Positions 367 to 14,971 of a stretch of 64,000 nt of DNA are shown piece after piece. The DNA is taken from the sequence record OM386667.1; one strand, 5' to 3'. The notes beneath the pieces are model-generated. The model saw only the letters and a list, made by a program, of their open reading frames with translations, had not been told where the DNA came from and did not search any database. The position numbers and the translations under genes were made by a program. Position 1 is the first letter of the stretch, and each line of letters opens with the position of its first letter. This stretch comes from Escherichia phage vB_EcoM_REC.

Positions 367-3300
367 ATGGCAACATTCCCAACATATCCAGCAACGTCTC
401 TCGAACAGGGCGTAGACCTGGTTATTTTCTCATCTAACCAACTCCATGATGTTATTAATGGAAGTGCTACAGAGAGTATTGAAACAGAATCAGGGTTGAT
501 ACCAACCCTGAGAAAATCCCTTGTTGACAACTTTTTCTTTAAAAGCCCATTGGATTGGGCGCAAGGCACAAACGAAACAGTTTTTAACCAACTACGTTAT
601 TTTCAGAATGGGGTATTGAGCGGTTATTATTATGCTCCTAATGCTACATTGGTAAACCCAATTCCTATGCAAGGGACTCCAGTAGGAGATAACAACTGGG
701 TATTGTGGGGACTGAAGACAGAACAACTAGCAACAGAAGTCACCCCTTGGGTATATTCTGGTGCAACTGGTTATGAAACAGTAATCAGTCCTCCCTACAT
801 CTTTGATAGTGCTATTGTTACAATCAATGGTGTTATTCAGGTTCTGGGAGAAGCTTTCCGCATAGAAGATAGTAAAATCATTTTATCTGAACCTTTGGGA
901 CATGATCCTGCAACAGGACTGCCAAACAAGCTTTTTGCCTATATTGGTAAAATCGTAGCTTCCGCAGATACAGATCCTAACTTAGAAAACCGTCTTGTCA
1001 GTTTAGAAACAAAAACTGAAGAACTGACAGAAAACATGGATAAAGTACCTTTACAAACTATTGCTCGTAAATACGGTTTGTTGGATGACGAAGTAGCTTA
1101 CGCAACAGCGGGTCAATCATTAACAGGGATTAAAGCTCTGTATGATCCGGTAGCACAATCTTCCTACACATTGCCTCCTAACATCACAGGGACTTTAACA
1201 TCTTTGTCTGTTTCTGGAGTAATGACTTATTCTGGCGGATCTGTAGATCTTTCTGCATTAGCTGTTGAACGTGGACAGTTTGTTCATTTGCCTACAAGCT
1301 TTGGTAATAATGTAACTCTGACAGCTAAAAATCAGACGATTGGGCGTGGCGCTGGTCGCTATCGTTGGGCGGGAAGTTTACCAAAAAGTATTTTAGCTTC
1401 TGATACATTGGAAACAAGTGGTGGATTAGGTCCAAATGCATGGGTTCTAACTAATACAGAAGGACTGTTAACCCCTCGTGGTGGAACATACAACGATTTA
1501 TTCGATGTTGTCCGCTTATCAGAATTTGCTAACAATACAACTACCTATACCACACCAGAAGCAGCTTTCCAGGCGGCACTGTTAGCAGCAAAAGCTTCGA
1601 AAAGTAAGATTCTCGACGCTTACGGTTGTGATATGACTTTCACGACAAGCTCTTTTGATATTCAAGATATCACTTTGCGTGGGGGTGTGTTCCGTGGTCA
1701 ACGCGATTATCGTGTGCAAAATGCTACAGTAGAAGGCACAACTTTCCGTAACTCTCGTGTTATGTATTGGGGTGGTGCTGTGCGCATGTTCGATTGTTTG
1801 TGGGACGGTGCTCCTCGCGCAGGTCAAGTTGGTAGCTTGGTATTCCAAGGAAACCCAATATCAGGTACTTTTGAAATTGATAATTGTACTTTTAAAAACG
1901 GGTTATATGGCATCCTTCAACAAGGAACAGGGGAACCAGTAACACGCGGTGTCTTCCGTAACCTTACCTTCATGGACATGCAAGGTGATGCAATAGAACT
2001 GAACGTCATCAATAAACATTATGATGATGGTTGTGTGATTGAGAATATTTACCTGTCTAATATTGATGGGACTAACGCTCCTATTCCTCTGTCCAACTGG
2101 GGTATCGGTATTGGTGTGGCTGGTAAAGGACCATATGGTTACGGAATTCCTGATGATCAATATTGCAAGAATATTACAATTCGTAACGTTTTTGCAAAAC
2201 GTTGTCGTCAGATTGTCCACGTAGAAGTTGGTCGTAATATTTCTATCGAAAACATTCATGGCGATCCAGATCAAACTGTATCTGTTGGGACAGGTTTGGC
2301 AACTGGCGCAGTTGTAATGTATGGAAGTAAAGATTTTACGATTGATGGTGTTTACGGAGAGCCTAAAACAGACGGTAGCACACTTGCAAGTAATATCCGT
2401 ATGATTTATTTGGAGTGGGGAACTAACGCAGTTCTGGATGAAGAGGGCAATCCGGTAGTTCCGGCACAGGGCAGACCTTCAAACCCATGCTTTAACTATT
2501 CTGTTCGTAACATTCACACCAAAACTGGGCGTGTTTTTGCAGGAGTTTCCGCTGGGCCAGGTTATGAAAACAGAGTCAGCTTTGAGAATATCCATTGTGC
2601 TGCGTTGCAGTTGTTCGGTGTAGCTTCTTGGCTTTCAATGTCTAACATCACCTGTAATATCTTTGATTGTGTTGGTCAACCTGAATCTGGTCCAGGGACA
2701 TTTTATGATGGATTCTTCCGTAGAGAAAAATCTGTTCTTGAGATGGTTAACGTAAACTGTTACCCAGATGGCAAGACTATGGTTACTGGTCGCCCACAGT
2801 GGAGCCGTTGCCGTTACTCTGATATTCATCGTGTCAACTGTAATGTTGAAGCTAATATGTATACCAATATCGCAGGTGGTATTGGAGCTATTGTAGGGAC
2901 AACTGGCAAAGTTTATTACTTAGAGCCTAACCCTAGCCGAAACATTGATGGGATGCATTTCCCAACAGGGAAGGAGTTTGACAAAGGGGATATGATAGTC
3001 AAAGCGGATAATACGTTCTTCCTTGTAACAACAAGTGGGGCATACATTCCAGATATCCCAGCTTTCGGTATTCGAGCTACACAAGCAGGAGATACCTTCC
3101 TGACACAGAACTTGACTCCTAATGGGACAGCAACAAACGCTTCTTGGTTGTATCACTATCCTCTGTCAGCAGGAACACGTATCCGTATTCCTGGTGCTGG
3201 TGTAGGTGGAGCAGATTTGGACACAGTTATTACTCGTGCACCTTATCAAGATAATGATACGTGGACTAACCCAGTTAAAATAGACATTGCAGATCCAATT

Positions 3301-3420
3301 GTAACGCCTACGAGTGCTGGAGTTAGAATCAAAACCATACCTAACGATTCTAGTAATGTTTCTGTAGGTAATACTGCGGTTATTCGCCCAACACCAGTGG
3401 TAGATGTGCCAACAACCTAA
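367..3420 (+). CDS. tail fibre / tailspike-like protein with predicted parallel beta-helix domain
   Basis: 1017 aa ORF; central region rich in short N-x-T/S/I turns (NITIRNVF, NISIENIHG, NCTFKNG) typical of right-handed beta-helix depolymerase-type tailspikes; heads a fibre gene cluster. Confidence 0.5.
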   Translation: MATFPTYPATSLEQGVDLVIFSSNQLHDVINGSATESIETESGLIPTLRKSLVDNFFFKSPLDWAQGTNETVFNQLRYFQNGVLSGYYYAPNATLVNPIPMQGTPVGDNNWVLWGLKTEQLATEVTPWVYSGATGYETVISPPYIFDSAIVTINGVIQVLGEAFRIEDSKIILSEPLGHDPATGLPNKLFAYIGKIVASADTDPNLENRLVSLETKTEELTENMDKVPLQTIARKYGLLDDEVAYATAGQSLTGIKALYDPVAQSSYTLPPNITGTLTSLSVSGVMTYSGGSVDLSALAVERGQFVHLPTSFGNNVTLTAKNQTIGRGAGRYRWAGSLPKSILASDTLETSGGLGPNAWVLTNTEGLLTPRGGTYNDLFDVVRLSEFANNTTTYTTPEAAFQAALLAAKASKSKILDAYGCDMTFTTSSFDIQDITLRGGVFRGQRDYRVQNATVEGTTFRNSRVMYWGGAVRMFDCLWDGAPRAGQVGSLVFQGNPISGTFEIDNCTFKNGLYGILQQGTGEPVTRGVFRNLTFMDMQGDAIELNVINKHYDDGCVIENIYLSNIDGTNAPIPLSNWGIGIGVAGKGPYGYGIPDDQYCKNITIRNVFAKRCRQIVHVEVGRNISIENIHGDPDQTVSVGTGLATGAVVMYGSKDFTIDGVYGEPKTDGSTLASNIRMIYLEWGTNAVLDEEGNPVVPAQGRPSNPCFNYSVRNIHTKTGRVFAGVSAGPGYENRVSFENIHCAALQLFGVASWLSMSNITCNIFDCVGQPESGPGTFYDGFFRREKSVLEMVNVNCYPDGKTMVTGRPQWSRCRYSDIHRVNCNVEANMYTNIAGGIGAIVGTTGKVYYLEPNPSRNIDGMHFPTGKEFDKGDMIVKADNTFFLVTTSGAYIPDIPAFGIRATQAGDTFLTQNLTPNGTATNASWLYHYPLSAGTRIRIPGAGVGGADLDTVITRAPYQDNDTWTNPVKIDIADPIVTPTSAGVRIKTIPNDSSNVSVGNTAVIRPTPVVDVPTT

Positions 3421-3484
3421 TGGAAATAGAGAGGGGGATTCCCCCTCTTCTTCCAATAGAATGGTCTAATAATAGGAGAGATAA

Positions 3485-10844: not shown

Positions 10845-13800
10845 TCAATGACAGGATGCCCAGGAATTACCCACGTCATATCCGGCAGTAAGCTGAACGT
10901 TAAGATTGTAAAATTCTCCAGCCTTAGTAACAGCTAAAGCAGCAAGTTCACCTGCCCGACTATAAGCTGTAAACCATCCACCTTTGGGAGATTCATGAAT
11001 GTTAGCCCAAATTTGCCCTGTCTCTTTTTCCTTATTATGCTTCCATTCTTCAACTTTAGCAAGGCATTCTTTATCAATTTTCTTTTGTTCTTCAGGATCG
11101 TCTACTTTCTTCCAACCTAATGATTCAGGTGAAAACCATTTGAATTCTACAAGGTTACGAGAAACTTCAAGCTGGGCTTCATCGTGGTATGCAATCATTT
11201 GTTGCACGAAGTCTTTATTCTTCCAGTCATCTTTAAAGAAGTCAACACTTAGTCCTTCTTCTTCGATCATATCGTCATAAATAACCATTGCACGTTTAGC
11301 ACAGATAACCCCACCACTTTGGAACAGAGAGTTAAGAATCGCGTGAGCAGAACGAGTAGGAACCTTACGACCGTCAATACCCAAAACATACTGTTTACCA
11401 GTCTTAACCCAGAAATCGTTTAAACGTTCTTTAAGACGCGCCAGTGGGAATGCAGCTTCCCAGAAAGCATCGAACACCAGTTGCCCTGTAAACTTATCGC
11501 TACCAATTGTTTTAGCAACCTTGTCGGCTTGTGCACCATAGGTAATACCATACTTAACAGATTTAGCAGGACTACGTTCAAATTTACGTCCAATAGTTTC
11601 AGTGATACGTTTTGCCATCATGGTATGAACATCGTTAGGCTTCTCTAACAAGAGAGCGTTACAGTATTCATGAGGCTCCGGTTCGTAGCGCCAACAGTTT
11701 CCTGTGATGGTAATGCAGTCTTTCTGACGCATGACCCACGTACCAAGTTCTGTTTGTGGACACCAAACATCCTCTACACCCCACTCTTCAATAGTCAAAC
11801 TTTGAACAGGAATGTGAGAGCGGTTAGCCAATGTTACCACTTTTACTTTCTGCTCTTTTGTATTGAAAGCTACAGAGATATTGCCTCCATGCACCAGGTA
11901 CGAGGCAGTTAAAGCTGCTTCAAAAAGTTCACCTGGGTTCTGCGCCCAACGCCAAACAGGTTTTTGTTTATGTTCATGCCAGTAACCATCTGCAATCAAG
12001 AAACCTTCCAAGAAAGCTACACGCTCGGCATGAGACATATTAACTACACGCTCTACCCACGGAACATCCCATTTACCTTGTTGAACAGAAGTTAAACTAT
12101 TTACCTGATCTTGTTCCATGTTAAATGGAGCATTACAAATAATATTATCTCCTGTGCAAAGCTCGGCAGTTGTTCTGACTTTAGGCACATAAGTATTCCC
12201 TTTACTACGGGTATTAACATACCAACGGTGATCTGCTGTTGCACGGTAAGTGTGTGATTTCCCTTTAATCTCAAACGTCTTACTATTTTTATAGAAGACC
12301 TTACCTTTTACTTTAGTCCATTCTTTCAGACCTGTTTCAGCATTGTACCCTAAAATCTCATCCCCTTCCTTCAGGTCGTGATATCCTACCCAACCTTTAC
12401 GAGTCAAAGCTTGAGCATCCATCGGCACACAGTAATGTGATTCAATTTTTGCTTCCAAAGAGTCGAAGTCGTAGCCGATCTGGAAGTATTTAGGAACCTC
12501 TACACCAAACAAGTTACGCATCTCCCATCCAAACAAAGATGTGACACGAGGAATATTAGCTACAGATCTATGTTTCATACGAGAGGTTGCAGCATCACAT
12601 GTAGCGGCTGGTGTAGGAATACGCCCATCCGCCCTTACTGCGGCTAAGAAACCTTTATCGTATTCTTGATCTTCTTCATCTTCTTCCCAATCAGCACCGC
12701 CACCTAAAATAGAGTTCCTACGATGCTTATACGTTAAGTATTCTACAATCTGTGTAGCATAAGGAAATTTCTCACCCAAAGCTTGCAGGTTAGGACAAAT
12801 TTCTTTTTCCTGACCTTTGGTAAAACATGGGTTAGTCAATACTTTAAGACCGCGACCTTTACCTTTTGCTATACGCTCTTGAATCTTCCTTTCCAAAGTT
12901 TCCGGTGTGCACTCCAGATGATCACAACGATCCTGACAAAAATTAGAAGATAGAGTTTGCTCAACGTAAGCTCTAATACCTTTCTGAAGTTCTTCCTCGC
13001 TCTTTTTAATTTTGGTGCCAGATTTAAGCGTCAAGTCTTTATCTTTATATTCAGACGGTACCCAACCTAATCCTACGAGCCAGTTTTTAATATGGGTTGT
13101 ATCGTTCAATGTTGCAGGGATGTTAGGATCACATAGAGGCTCATCTGCTGCAACTGGCAGTTTCCACTCTTTCCCCCACATAACTAACCACCAATCGCCA
13201 TCCCTCTCTTCCAAATGACCATCATGTTTCTTAGCAAAATTGATCATATGGTTAGTTGGCTCTAAGTTCTTTTTAATTTGCAACTTAGGTGGAATAAAAG
13301 CCTTAAGATAACCTTTTGTTGCTGGTTTAGGTGGCAAAATAGGCTCAACGAGTAAACGAAGACGCTCCATTTCTGCATCCAAAAAAGCAAGGTTCTCTTC
13401 TGCTTGCTTCATGTTAAAAGCAAACCCACGGTGTTCCTGGCGTGTAATAATGTCTGCTACACGTTGTTCAAGTTCAAATGGACCTTCCCATTTATCATAA
13501 TCGCCCCATTCTTCCATAAGGTAATTATATACGCTCGTATTGGCTTTGTTGTCATAGATACAGTAATAAAGCATATCCGCAGCAAAAGTCTTAAATCGAT
13601 CTTCTTCTGGAATCTCTTTACGGAAATCTATTTTTACATCACCACCTGCTTTTCGAGAAAGTGCTGCCAAGCTATGTCCTGATTTGCCCTCAATCTTTCG
13701 ATCTGGGTTTAACACTTTACTCAAAATCAAGGAGTCAATAAGTTTTACCTTATTTTTGCCCCACGTATTATATTTAACACTGTAATCTAATCCATAAAAC

Positions 13801-14177
13801 AGTTTTGTAGCCAACCAGTCGTAGTTGATACCGTTGTGAGCCACAGCCATTTCAACCAGATATTCAGGCTTGTCTTTAAAATAACCTTCATGATTAATAA
13901 AATCTGGGAAATCTTTTAGTTGAAAATGTGTGTAATCTTGCGCCACATACTCTTTAAGAACATATGTGTATTTACCATCTGACTCTTCATAAGGACGCCC
14001 ATCAAAGATGTATTTAGGGCCATCGTGGAAAGCTACTATTTCTCCTGTTTCATGGTTCTCTAAGACAATACAGTGCATTTGAAATGTGTCTTTGAGACGA
14101 TAAGGACTAGCTAAATAATCAATAGTGTCATTATTCAACAATCCGTTTGCTTCAATATCCCATGTAAACTTACTCAC
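10845..14177 (-). CDS. family A DNA polymerase (T7 gp5-like) with 3-prime to 5-prime exonuclease domain, interrupted by an intein
   Basis: 1110 aa; N-terminal FTWDIEANGLL (exo I, cf. T7 MIVSDIEANALL), DFDSLEAKI (motif A), KYGITYGAQADKVAK (motif B), C-terminal GNSWASCH (cf. T7 GPNWAICH). Confidence 0.9.
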   Translation of the reverse strand: MSKFTWDIEANGLLNNDTIDYLASPYRLKDTFQMHCIVLENHETGEIVAFHDGPKYIFDGRPYEESDGKYTYVLKEYVAQDYTHFQLKDFPDFINHEGYFKDKPEYLVEMAVAHNGINYDWLATKLFYGLDYSVKYNTWGKNKVKLIDSLILSKVLNPDRKIEGKSGHSLAALSRKAGGDVKIDFRKEIPEEDRFKTFAADMLYYCIYDNKANTSVYNYLMEEWGDYDKWEGPFELEQRVADIITRQEHRGFAFNMKQAEENLAFLDAEMERLRLLVEPILPPKPATKGYLKAFIPPKLQIKKNLEPTNHMINFAKKHDGHLEERDGDWWLVMWGKEWKLPVAADEPLCDPNIPATLNDTTHIKNWLVGLGWVPSEYKDKDLTLKSGTKIKKSEEELQKGIRAYVEQTLSSNFCQDRCDHLECTPETLERKIQERIAKGKGRGLKVLTNPCFTKGQEKEICPNLQALGEKFPYATQIVEYLTYKHRRNSILGGGADWEEDEEDQEYDKGFLAAVRADGRIPTPAATCDAATSRMKHRSVANIPRVTSLFGWEMRNLFGVEVPKYFQIGYDFDSLEAKIESHYCVPMDAQALTRKGWVGYHDLKEGDEILGYNAETGLKEWTKVKGKVFYKNSKTFEIKGKSHTYRATADHRWYVNTRSKGNTYVPKVRTTAELCTGDNIICNAPFNMEQDQVNSLTSVQQGKWDVPWVERVVNMSHAERVAFLEGFLIADGYWHEHKQKPVWRWAQNPGELFEAALTASYLVHGGNISVAFNTKEQKVKVVTLANRSHIPVQSLTIEEWGVEDVWCPQTELGTWVMRQKDCITITGNCWRYEPEPHEYCNALLLEKPNDVHTMMAKRITETIGRKFERSPAKSVKYGITYGAQADKVAKTIGSDKFTGQLVFDAFWEAAFPLARLKERLNDFWVKTGKQYVLGIDGRKVPTRSAHAILNSLFQSGGVICAKRAMVIYDDMIEEEGLSVDFFKDDWKNKDFVQQMIAYHDEAQLEVSRNLVEFKWFSPESLGWKKVDDPEEQKKIDKECLAKVEEWKHNKEKETGQIWANIHESPKGGWFTAYSRAGELAALAVTKAGEFYNLNVQLTAGYDVGNSWASCH
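11697..12431 (-). mobile_element. intein with LAGLIDADG homing-endonuclease domain inserted between polymerase motifs A and B
   Basis: residues 583-827: begins CVPMDAQAL, contains TADHRWYV (block B T..H), FLEGFLIADGYW (LAGLIDADG), ends ...CITITGN followed by Cys +1; flanking extein sequence aligns with T7 polymerase. Confidence 0.6.
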
Positions 14178-14971
14178 TATTCCTCCTTTCTAATGTTCTC
14201 CAGAACCCACTGAAGTTCTTTTAAACTTAAACTTCTTACTCCCGCAGTTTTACTAGCTTCAGCTTTAAGTAACGGGTAAGCCTCAATGATACGCGTTTTA
14301 AGATCAGAAGTCAAGGCTTTTAAAAAATAGGTAGATGCTTCAGATAAAGAATCTTCTTCTGATAACACTCTACCTGCACTTGCTCCCGCTCTCCTAACAG
14401 CTATATCGTAGTCTTTACTGTTACCTAATACGAATAGTCGATTCTCTCCTAAAACAACGGGAGAACGCTTCTCGTTGCGTTTAATCCATACCTGGAATAC
14501 ACAAGGAACATCCCAAGGTTCTCCATGAAGAATAAAAGATCCTTTTGGACATTCTTCTTCGTAAAGAAGATGCATATGGGGATTTAGTTTGTGTGCAAAA
14601 AAGATTTTTTGAAATGTGCGAGGCAAGATAAAACAAATACCACCTTCGTTATCCAGCATTTCAGCACAATGGTTAAAGAATTTAATGGCAAGACTAGCAT
14701 TTTTTCCAAATGGAGGATTACCGACAAAAGCAGTTACACTACCAACAGACTCAACAGATTGAGCTAAAAAATCTGCCTCAATACAATCTTCAAACTTAGG
14801 GTCAATATCAAAAGAAGTTATGTTTTTAAAACAAGAAGAGAAAGCTCCTTCTCCCGCAGATGGTTCTACGTAGTTAGCTTCCTCTCCAAAAATTTCTTTG
14901 ATCTTATCACATAAGAACCCCGCATAAGCGGGGTTAGTGTAATATTGATCAAGTGTGTTCAACTTGCTCAA
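14177..14971 (-). CDS. DNA methyltransferase, N6-adenine (or N4-cytosine) amino-methyltransferase type
   Basis: 264 aa; EPSAGEGAF (SAM-binding motif I-like) and GNPPFG (catalytic motif IV, NPPF variant); start overlaps polymerase stop (ATGA). Confidence 0.6.
   Translation of the reverse strand: MSKLNTLDQYYTNPAYAGFLCDKIKEIFGEEANYVEPSAGEGAFSSCFKNITSFDIDPKFEDCIEADFLAQSVESVGSVTAFVGNPPFGKNASLAIKFFNHCAEMLDNEGGICFILPRTFQKIFFAHKLNPHMHLLYEEECPKGSFILHGEPWDVPCVFQVWIKRNEKRSPVVLGENRLFVLGNSKDYDIAVRRAGASAGRVLSEEDSLSEASTYFLKALTSDLKTRIIEAYPLLKAEASKTAGVRSLSLKELQWVLENIRKEE

Follow-up and report, generated by a model that had tools for sequence, protein, structure and literature searches.

Class 3 inteins are defined by a Trp-Cys-Thr triplet (Trp B:12, Cys F:4 and Thr G:5; PMC2807308, definitions also in PMC5222942), and both the original and the operational definitions specify that an N-terminal Cys, Ser or Thr nucleophile is absent (PMC2807308, PMC7891396). 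Some class 1 inteins have Cys at F:4, and these are polyphyletic (PMC3196547); a triplet grafted on a class 1 intein conferred no class 3 splicing (PMC7664689), and B:7 was dispensable in the MP-Be DnaB intein (PMC2807308). Inteins without a penultimate His can splice (PMC5050341, PMC7891396), and Bethlehem gp51 provides a phage intein that splices efficiently with a penultimate Gly (PMC5050341). Here, a stretch of 64,000 nucleotides (nt) of Escherichia phage vB_EcoM_REC (OM386667.1; "the window", numbered from its first letter) was analyzed, in which a T7-type DNA polymerase gene is interrupted by a 735-nt segment that is, judged by its sequence, an intein. We consider it very probable that this is a self-splicing, mobile intein of a phage-borne family, lodged just after motif A of the family A polymerase of a Phapecoctavirus-like coliphage.

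Insert boundaries were established against intein-free alleles. Polymerases of phAPEC8, ESCO37, Mt1B1_P17, SF1-1, ETEC-TG and other phages, 98-99% identical to that of the window, lack exactly these 735 nt and read ...IESHY/CWRYE... at the junction (marked by a slash) as a single chain; the empty DNA site is ...CAC TAC/TGT TGG..., in the phAPEC8 gene context ...GAATCACACTAC/TGTTGGCGGTACGAG... An earlier note on this DNA, made from its letters, had placed an insert of about 245 residues at 11697-12431, and this was borne out to the base: the insert comprises 245 codons in frame with 0 stops, begins CVPMD... and ends ...TITGN, followed by Cys. All motifs quoted in that note were recovered, namely DFDSLEAKIESHY upstream, the Cys start, TADHRWYV, FLEGFLIADGYW, TITGN and the Cys after it. 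The insert lies between motifs A and B, as the note had it, because the spliced protein aligns with T7 gp5 such that D475 corresponds to D570 and motif B lies downstream. With the insert removed, this alignment was gapless across the junction (E=1.7e-15), which corresponds to T7 F487/M488; the insert starts 13 residues past the catalytic Asp, in the palm, and motif B lies ~40 residues beyond the junction. A structural polymerase domain, which the note had named as one finding that would overturn its reading, was ruled out, as close relatives are precisely without the segment.

The product of the polymerase open reading frame (ORF) matched PF00476 above gathering and phrog_17 DNA polymerase at E=5e-106 (Pfam, PHROGs), and carries the family A motif A (DxSxxE), motif B (RxxAKxxxYGxxYG) and C-terminal ...CH. 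The gene is 97-99% identical at the nucleotide level to those of the Phapecoctavirus phages Ro121c4YLVW, ESCO5 and phAPEC8 (subfamily Stephanstirmvirinae; E. coli myophages of ~150 kb). The layout of the locus is as follows, with intein residues counted from Cys1.

10845..14177, minus strand: precursor of the intein-containing family A (T7-type) DNA polymerase; a single ORF of 1110 amino acids (aa), 127.7 kDa, GTG start
12432..14177, minus strand: N-extein, residues 1-582, with the 3'-5' exonuclease region and the polymerase up to motif A, ending ...DFDSLEAKIESHY; assigned from alignments with the intein-free phAPEC8 polymerase and T7 gp5
12468-12470, minus strand: catalytic Asp570 of motif A, equal to T7 gp5 D475 by alignment
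11697..12431, minus strand: predicted intein, precursor residues 583-827; 245 aa, 27.9 kDa, Cys1 to Thr243-Gly244-Asn245
12138..12431, minus strand: intein residues 1-98, the N-terminal portion of the HINT splicing domain, from family conservation and the strands of the AlphaFold (AF2) model
12429-12431, minus strand: codon of block A Cys1
12222-12239, minus strand: block B Thr65, His68 and Trp70, in TADHRWYV (intein residues 65-72)
11817..12137, minus strand: linker and single LAGLIDADG half-domain, intein residues 99-205
11985-11990, minus strand: Asp148-Gly149 of the LAGLIDADG motif FLEGFLIADGYW (intein residues 140-151)
11940-11942, minus strand: conserved Gln164 of the half-domain
11697..11816, minus strand: intein residues 206-245, the C-terminal portion of the HINT domain
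11760-11762, minus strand: Cys224 at F:4, in block F ...DVWC
11697-11705, minus strand: Thr243, Gly244 and Asn245 of block G TITGN (residues 241-245)
10845..11696, minus strand: C-extein, residues 828-1110 and stop; first residue Cys+1 (codon 11694-11696)
11535-11576, minus strand: motif B RSPAKSVKYGITYG, in the C-extein; the alternative intein site of sister phages lies between G877 and I878

A tblastn search placed relatives of the insert in phage proteins of unrelated kinds (tape measure, portal, TerL, NrdA and other PolA or DNA polymerases); others lie in a small Lys-rich protein family, and a family profile search returned 255 database proteins at E<=1e-5. Conservation was counted in an alignment of 122 family members at 24-49% identity, with denominators of 118-122 depending on position. 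Cys1 was present in 118/118 members, Thr65 and His68 each in 120/120, and Trp70 in 116/120; Val222, Trp223, Cys224, Thr227, Thr243, Gly244 and Asn245 did not vary in 122 sequences. The termini are thus kept as C1...TGN followed by a nucleophilic +1 residue (Ser, Cys or Thr), which is Ser or Thr in 118 of 121 members, mostly Ser, and Cys in the window copy. The splice-junction residues of the window copy are all in place (Cys1, block B Thr-x-x-His, Asn245, Cys+1). A HINT fold was obtained from AlphaFold with the family alignment (predicted local distance difference test, pLDDT, 92.4; predicted template modeling score, pTM, 0.90); a model from the single sequence (pLDDT 36) was discarded for this one. 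Single-sequence phmmer of the intein against PDB gave marginal matches only, and the C-terminal 49 residues alone returned nothing relevant in a homology search. On homology and structure the assignment as an intein was unambiguous. The earlier reading of a selfish intein, with a LAGLIDADG-type domain, in an essential T7-type polymerase was upheld by the intein-less alleles, the fold, the homologs in unrelated hosts and the signs of horizontal transfer described below. That note had also called the penultimate Gly atypical; Gly244 does stand in place of the common but non-obligatory His (block G:6), and it is no oddity within the family, as 122/122 members have it.

Most family members (metagenomic P0002-P0122) sit in the small Lys-rich protein (...KFDVYP/SAYANGWAAKWY...), some host proteins of this kind matching PF19846, PF19197 or PF18905. 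Three adjoining intein sites fall within five residues of it (YP/SAY, PSAY/S and PSAYA/SG), so that this protein looks like a hotspot of repeated intein invasion.

In the proposed mechanism, the polymerase would be translated as the 127.7-kDa precursor, from which the HINT domain (residues 1-98 and 206-245) would excise the 27.9-kDa intein and ligate Tyr582 to Cys828. The ligation product would be a 99.7-kDa active polymerase, as in the intein-free sister phages. The chemistry would use Cys1 and/or Cys224, with His68, Thr65 and Thr243 as helpers, followed by Cys+1 and cyclization of Asn245, with no penultimate or block F histidine at its disposal. As a selfish DNA element, the intein would pass from the genome of one co-infecting phage to that of another, the empty site being filled by gene conversion; the most likely initiator of conversion would be the intein's own LAGLIDADG half-domain, working as a dimer, and this is the least certain step.

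The insert was present in ~34 of ~121 related phage records, scattered over Phapecoctavirus and Justusliebigvirus. The intein-bearing records are complete phage genomes from isolates in which the insert interrupts the only polymerase gene; a working polymerase must therefore be produced. Between the window and PaulScherrer (Justusliebigvirus), nucleotide identity was 91.7% over the intein, 72% over the N-extein and 79% over the C-extein, being highest inside the intein (97%) and declining outward. Synonymous divergence (dS) between the window and the Justusliebigvirus copy was 0.48 for the intein and 1.53 for the adjacent C-extein. The intein thus postdates the split of its hosts and was transferred horizontally between the genera. 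Inter-genus intein differences comprised 55 synonymous and 6 nonsynonymous changes (ratio of nonsynonymous to synonymous divergence, dN/dS, 0.022); dN/dS was 0.039 over the linker and LAGLIDADG part, and the C-terminal HINT part had 0 nonsynonymous changes. These values indicate that the splicing and the endonuclease-like parts are both under purifying selection.

Within Phapecoctavirus, intein copies are at most 5/735 nt apart; their flanks differ at up to ~40/600 sites, with variable breakpoints abutting the insertion. The flanks were as follows.

iGC_PHA_EC001 and anhysbys (intein-bearing): flank of phAPEC8 type right up to the intein
Ro121c4YLVW (intein-bearing): divergent haplotype on both flanks
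Window (intein-bearing): divergent haplotype solely from -4 to +75, with 12 silent differences from phAPEC8
ZCKP1 (intein-bearing): a different mosaic flank
11622..11696 of the window, minus strand: putative co-conversion tract, with 11 synonymous differences from phAPEC8 in the first 75 nt past the intein

The remaining synonymous difference of the window is at -4 (12435), and all 12 bases are those of the ESCO13/Ro121c4-type haplotype. Such a pattern would be expected of repeated gene conversion in which the co-conversion tracts vary; ordinary recombination may also have contributed. ESCO13 (KX552041) is intein-free and has the divergent flank haplotype (~40 differences/600 nt) seen around the Ro121c4YLVW intein; it either belongs to the lineage that first harbored the intein or lost the intein precisely through recombination. 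In favor of homing are the patchy distribution, an intein younger than its exteins and the mosaic flanks; the non-palindromic target counts against it.

The LAGLIDADG homing endonuclease announced by the earlier note stands as far as motif and domain go; the usual two-motif enzyme does not, as there is one half-domain only. A helix ending in an acidic residue is followed by a beta-sheet saddle, as in the LAGLIDADG fold, and the secondary structure runs helix-strand-strand-helix-strand-strand over intein residues 125-201, a single alpha-beta-beta-alpha-beta-beta unit with one motif instead of the two of PI-SceI-type enzymes. This single-motif layout is shared by ~119/122 family members. Longer members (280-314 aa) carry extra inserts in the HINT part and no second motif, and three mini versions (P0005, P0008 and P0009) are without the half-domain. 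Asp148-Gly149 is kept in 117/119 members, with Lys120, Trp125 and Gln164 also conserved; residue 165 is Lys in 86% of the family and Asn in the window copy. To build a LAGLIDADG active site, a single half-domain has to dimerize. The half-domain is under purifying selection and is a putative nuclease, an activity made less certain by the single half-domain and motif. No description of single-LAGLIDADG inteins was found in the searchable literature.

Several observations weigh against a self-splicing, mobile intein. Curated models matched the intein below gathering (Pfam Intein_splicing, E=0.009; LAGLIDADG_3, E=0.13), NCBIfam gave no match to the intein alone and PHROGs none above threshold, and the canonical assisting residues Asp F:4, His F:13 and penultimate His are absent. 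The endonuclease part has one motif only, the mosaic flanks could have arisen by ordinary phage recombination without an endonuclease, and the empty target showed no palindromic symmetry (best 5/11, equal to background), which counts against the nuclease because a symmetric homodimer would predict a palindromic target. The non-canonical active site, without penultimate His and Asp F:4, would suit a HINT/BIL-type autoprocessing domain that cleaves and does not ligate, so that the polymerase would exist as two polypeptides or would retain the insert as a domain. We regard this as highly improbable, since every residue for ligation is there (Cys1, His68, Asn245 and Cys+1), the insertion is in the palm 13 residues past the catalytic Asp, the intein-free allele is a single chain with an identical junction, many unrelated proteins host this element and conserve a nucleophile at +1, and penultimate-Gly inteins splice efficiently (PMC5050341). 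Removal at the RNA level was considered because LAGLIDADG ORFs are common in group I introns and the KIL1 polymerase is annotated as a two-piece joined coding sequence (CDS). An intron was rejected, as the insert is read in one unbroken frame with both exteins, the endonuclease part lies between the HINT halves and no RNA family or intron was matched in Rfam at E<=1; an assembly artifact was likewise rejected, the same 735 nt being present in ~34 independently sequenced records. Together these two explanations have a negligible probability.

A more serious alternative is that the intein splices while its half-domain is a nuclease-dead remnant or purely structural, the patchiness and mosaic flanks stemming from ordinary homologous recombination. 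We hold this to be the less likely course and yet a substantial possibility. It would account for the single motif, where the nepoznato-type, Pseudomonas KIL1 and Gordonia Mcklovin inteins have two, for the unsymmetrical target, for Asn165 in the window copy and for the divergent haplotype of intein-free ESCO13; the mini versions further imply that splicing is independent of the half-domain. Against it, the single motif is the family rule and not a one-off truncation, Asp-Gly at the catalytic position and Gln164, Lys120 and Trp125 are conserved, dN/dS in the linker and LAGLIDADG part is low, and an intein much younger than its host genes, with near-identical copies in different flanks, fits active invasion.

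The splicing class was the other point at which the note needed amendment. Cys1 is present and invariant, and yet the note's call of class 1 is not secure, because it was drawn from Cys1 alone and the triplet Trp B:12-Cys F:4-Thr G:5 is present as well. The triplet is complete in the window copy and near-invariant in the family (Trp B:12 in 116/120, Cys F:4 and Thr G:5 each in 122/122), Cys224 replacing the usual class 1 Asp at F:4. From Cys F:4 to the terminal Asn there are 21 residues, and three class 3 inteins, those of Mch, Mle and Msm DnaB, share this spacing (numbered as in PMC5222942 and PMC7664689). Other class 3 traits are missing from the window copy: Cys1 is there, as in 118/118 relatives, and the +1 residue is Cys in place of Ser or Thr. 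Triplet-carrying inteins with an N-terminal nucleophile were reportedly tested by Tori and Perler in 2011. Tori et al. found Ser1 or Cys1 as well in 3 of 37 inteins with this triplet. Mycobacteriophage Catera Gp206 appears in PMC3196547 among the class 3 inteins, as one that splices efficiently; in our own reading of its boundary, Catera gp206 (DQ398053, 116998-118761) is SLA/CSTPILT...HLW...VRCITV...PTHN/T and appears to combine Cys1 with the triplet as the window intein does. The absence of an N-terminal nucleophile would accordingly not be an absolute criterion, because Cys appears to be the first residue of an intein that the literature counts as class 3.

We moderately favor a route initiated by Cys1. 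Both Cys1 and Thr B:7 are argued to be needed because both are invariant in the family. Splicing through Cys224 by a class 3 or relay route is a tentative alternative that we think rather unlikely: in it, Cys224 would attack the N-terminal junction of the same intein, give a branched intermediate at block F and transfer to Cys+1, with Cys1 dispensable or a mere relay. The full triplet, the 21-residue spacing, the Ser or Thr at +1 in 118/121 members (a class 3 trait) and the apparent Cys1-plus-triplet arrangement of Catera Gp206 speak for this route. Were Cys1 dispensable, it would be expected to drift, and position 1 has done so in the canonical inteins of class 3; the retention of Cys1 in every relative together with Thr B:7, at 24-49% identity, therefore weighs against this route, as do the operational definitions, the polyphyletic class 1 inteins with Cys F:4 (PMC3196547) and the failure of the grafted triplet to make a class 1 intein class 3 (PMC7664689).

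A third polymerase allele was found in nepoznato (MN850571), nieznany, ukendt, AV126 and phiWec187, which have no intein at the site of the window; at that site they have Thr for Cys, and 8/24 surrounding bases differ. Their polymerases carry a 324-aa intein 50 residues downstream, inside motif B (KYG/xTYG; locus 2501-3472 in nepoznato). Each polymerase among the alleles examined had at most one of the two inteins. The closest relatives of the window intein outside Stephanstirmvirinae are metagenomic PolA inteins at 41-49% identity, all at motif B; judged by the position of these relatives, the intein would seem to have reached motif A by a secondary jump inside one gene.

Several related records call for comment. 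The polymerase of Pseudomonas phage KIL1 (NC_030934), annotated as the two-piece join, contains a homologous motif B intein with Cys1, the Trp-Cys-Thr triplet, a ...TGN end and two LAGLIDADG motifs, and this intein seems to have been treated as an intron in the annotation. The tape measure protein of Gordonia phage Mcklovin (MN428055) harbors a two-motif intein that is not annotated; it has Cys1 and this triplet as well and ends ...TSN/S. The "Campylobacter phage" records A150, A145, B15, C3 and A110a (MG065639, MG065645, MG065650, MG065656 and MG065689; ~146-151 kb, labeled C. jejuni) also belong here: B15 is 97.8% identical to phAPEC8 in the sampled polymerase segment, and the other four are ~78% identical to phAPEC8 and have, at motif B, the intein of nepoznato type. 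Among related records there are also labels of Acinetobacter, Klebsiella, Dompiswa and Salmonella, and the host labels of these records look doubtful. For outra (MN850645) and alia (MN850632), both Justusliebigvirus, the polymerase annotation reads "putative DNA polymerase, part I"; this suggests a gene that is split or interrupted at another place, and the intron of the BASEL table (see below) may be the cause.

When the family profile was run against the window, the polymerase ORF was the sole match (E=5.5e-73, far beyond chance) and no second copy of the intein family was found; no other inteins were detected among the 10 largest other ORFs, and no tRNA genes were found in the window. The first base of the polymerase GTG start (14177) is the last base of the stop codon of an upstream 264-aa ORF (14177-14971, minus strand), whose relatives are annotated as DNA N6-adenine methyltransferase. 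This overlap of stop and start suggests translational coupling.

The polymerase intein is already known at annotation level, and its first reading in the window was a correct rediscovery. GenBank MZ501100 (Escherichia phage PaulScherrer, Bas60) has an "intein-containing DNA polymerase precursor" with mat_peptide features, as has PQ821640 (phage SD2). The MZ501100 mat_peptide "intein" (locus 2504-3238) is one codon off the required Cys1...Asn, reading V...C and not C...N, a shift that is possible because Cys codons flank both junctions. The BASEL paper (Maffei et al., 2021; PMC8594841) reports that comparative genomics served to identify inteins, and its S5 Table counts 2 inteins and 1 intron in Bas60. 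Neither an experimental study of this intein nor a paper linking inteins with phi92 was found in the literature searched. A 2024 paper states that no inteins had been reported in coliphages (PMC11162368), which an intein in the polymerase of phi92/phAPEC8-like coliphages contradicts. The novelty that remains is the Cys1-plus-triplet active site and the half endonuclease; no joint description of Cys1 and triplet with a single half-domain was found in searchable papers. It is conceivable, if improbable at present, that at least 255 proteins form a large and so far uncharacterized phage and metagenome family which combines Cys1 with the full class 3 triplet, lacks assisting block F/G His and has a conserved half-domain that acts as a dimer. 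The half-domain would then act as an intein homodimer or within a dimer of polymerase precursors and, if this is true, would be the first dimeric intein-borne homing endonuclease.

Annotation could be corrected in ~30 phage genomes, several of them phage-therapy candidates, most records giving just "DNA polymerase I" for the 1110-aa product. The empty allele, the motif A intein and the larger motif B intein together form a three-allele system that exists in nature, in E. coli phages that are easy to grow, and is useful for studies of intein homing, site switching and immunity. Splicing of a 245-aa intein at a Tyr/Cys junction is a prediction directly testable in E. coli, the host, and an active site of Cys1 plus triplet without assisting histidines, joined to a half endonuclease, could interest intein biochemists and protein-engineering groups.

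Among known systems, the Bas60 and SD2 inteins are the same element as that of the window (same site, 245 aa, 97.6-100% aa identity), and the same insert is present, unannotated, in phi92, ESCO5, ZCKP1, anhysbys and others; the host polymerases of Bas60 and phi92 (Justusliebigvirus) are 72-79% identical to that of the window at the nucleotide level. The nepoznato-type intein shares the host gene, 33% identity in the splicing domain, Cys1, HxW, Cys F:4 and ...TGN/Cys+1 with the window intein and, unlike it, has two LAGLIDADG motifs, that is, a full monomeric-type endonuclease. PI-SceI, PI-PfuI and the TliVMA intein (7qsu/7qss) have two motifs in a pseudo-dimeric nuclease of ~200 aa plus DNA-recognition regions, whereas the window intein has a single half-domain of ~75-100 aa. 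I-CreI, I-MsoI and I-CeuI are homodimeric single-motif enzymes that are free-standing, intron-encoded and directed at pseudo-palindromic targets; the window domain is instead embedded in an intein and its target is non-palindromic. The class 1 intein of Mycobacteriophage Bethlehem gp51, a recombination directionality factor (RDF), resembles the window intein in its phage DNA-metabolism host protein, Cys1 and penultimate Gly (Kelley et al., 2016; PMC5050341). It splices efficiently, is slowed by replacement of Gly with His (PMC5050341) and has a toxic, active endonuclease, its likeness to the window intein being one of traits. The closest solved structure, AceL NrdHF (PDB 6zgq), is a class 3 intein likewise without His F:13 and His G:6 (PMC7891396), a further pointer to class 3. 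With the class 3 inteins MP-Be DnaB, Msm/Mch DnaB-1, AceL NrdHF and MP-Catera Gp206 the window intein shares the triplet, the phage habitat and the 21-residue spacing, and its family differs from class 3 inteins in retaining invariant Cys1 and Thr B:7. Cys+1, as in the window copy, occurs among tested class 3 inteins only in Bvi IcmO (PMC5222942), and class 3 inteins have mainly been described in the P-loops of helicases and ATPases, whereas the window intein lies in a polymerase palm.

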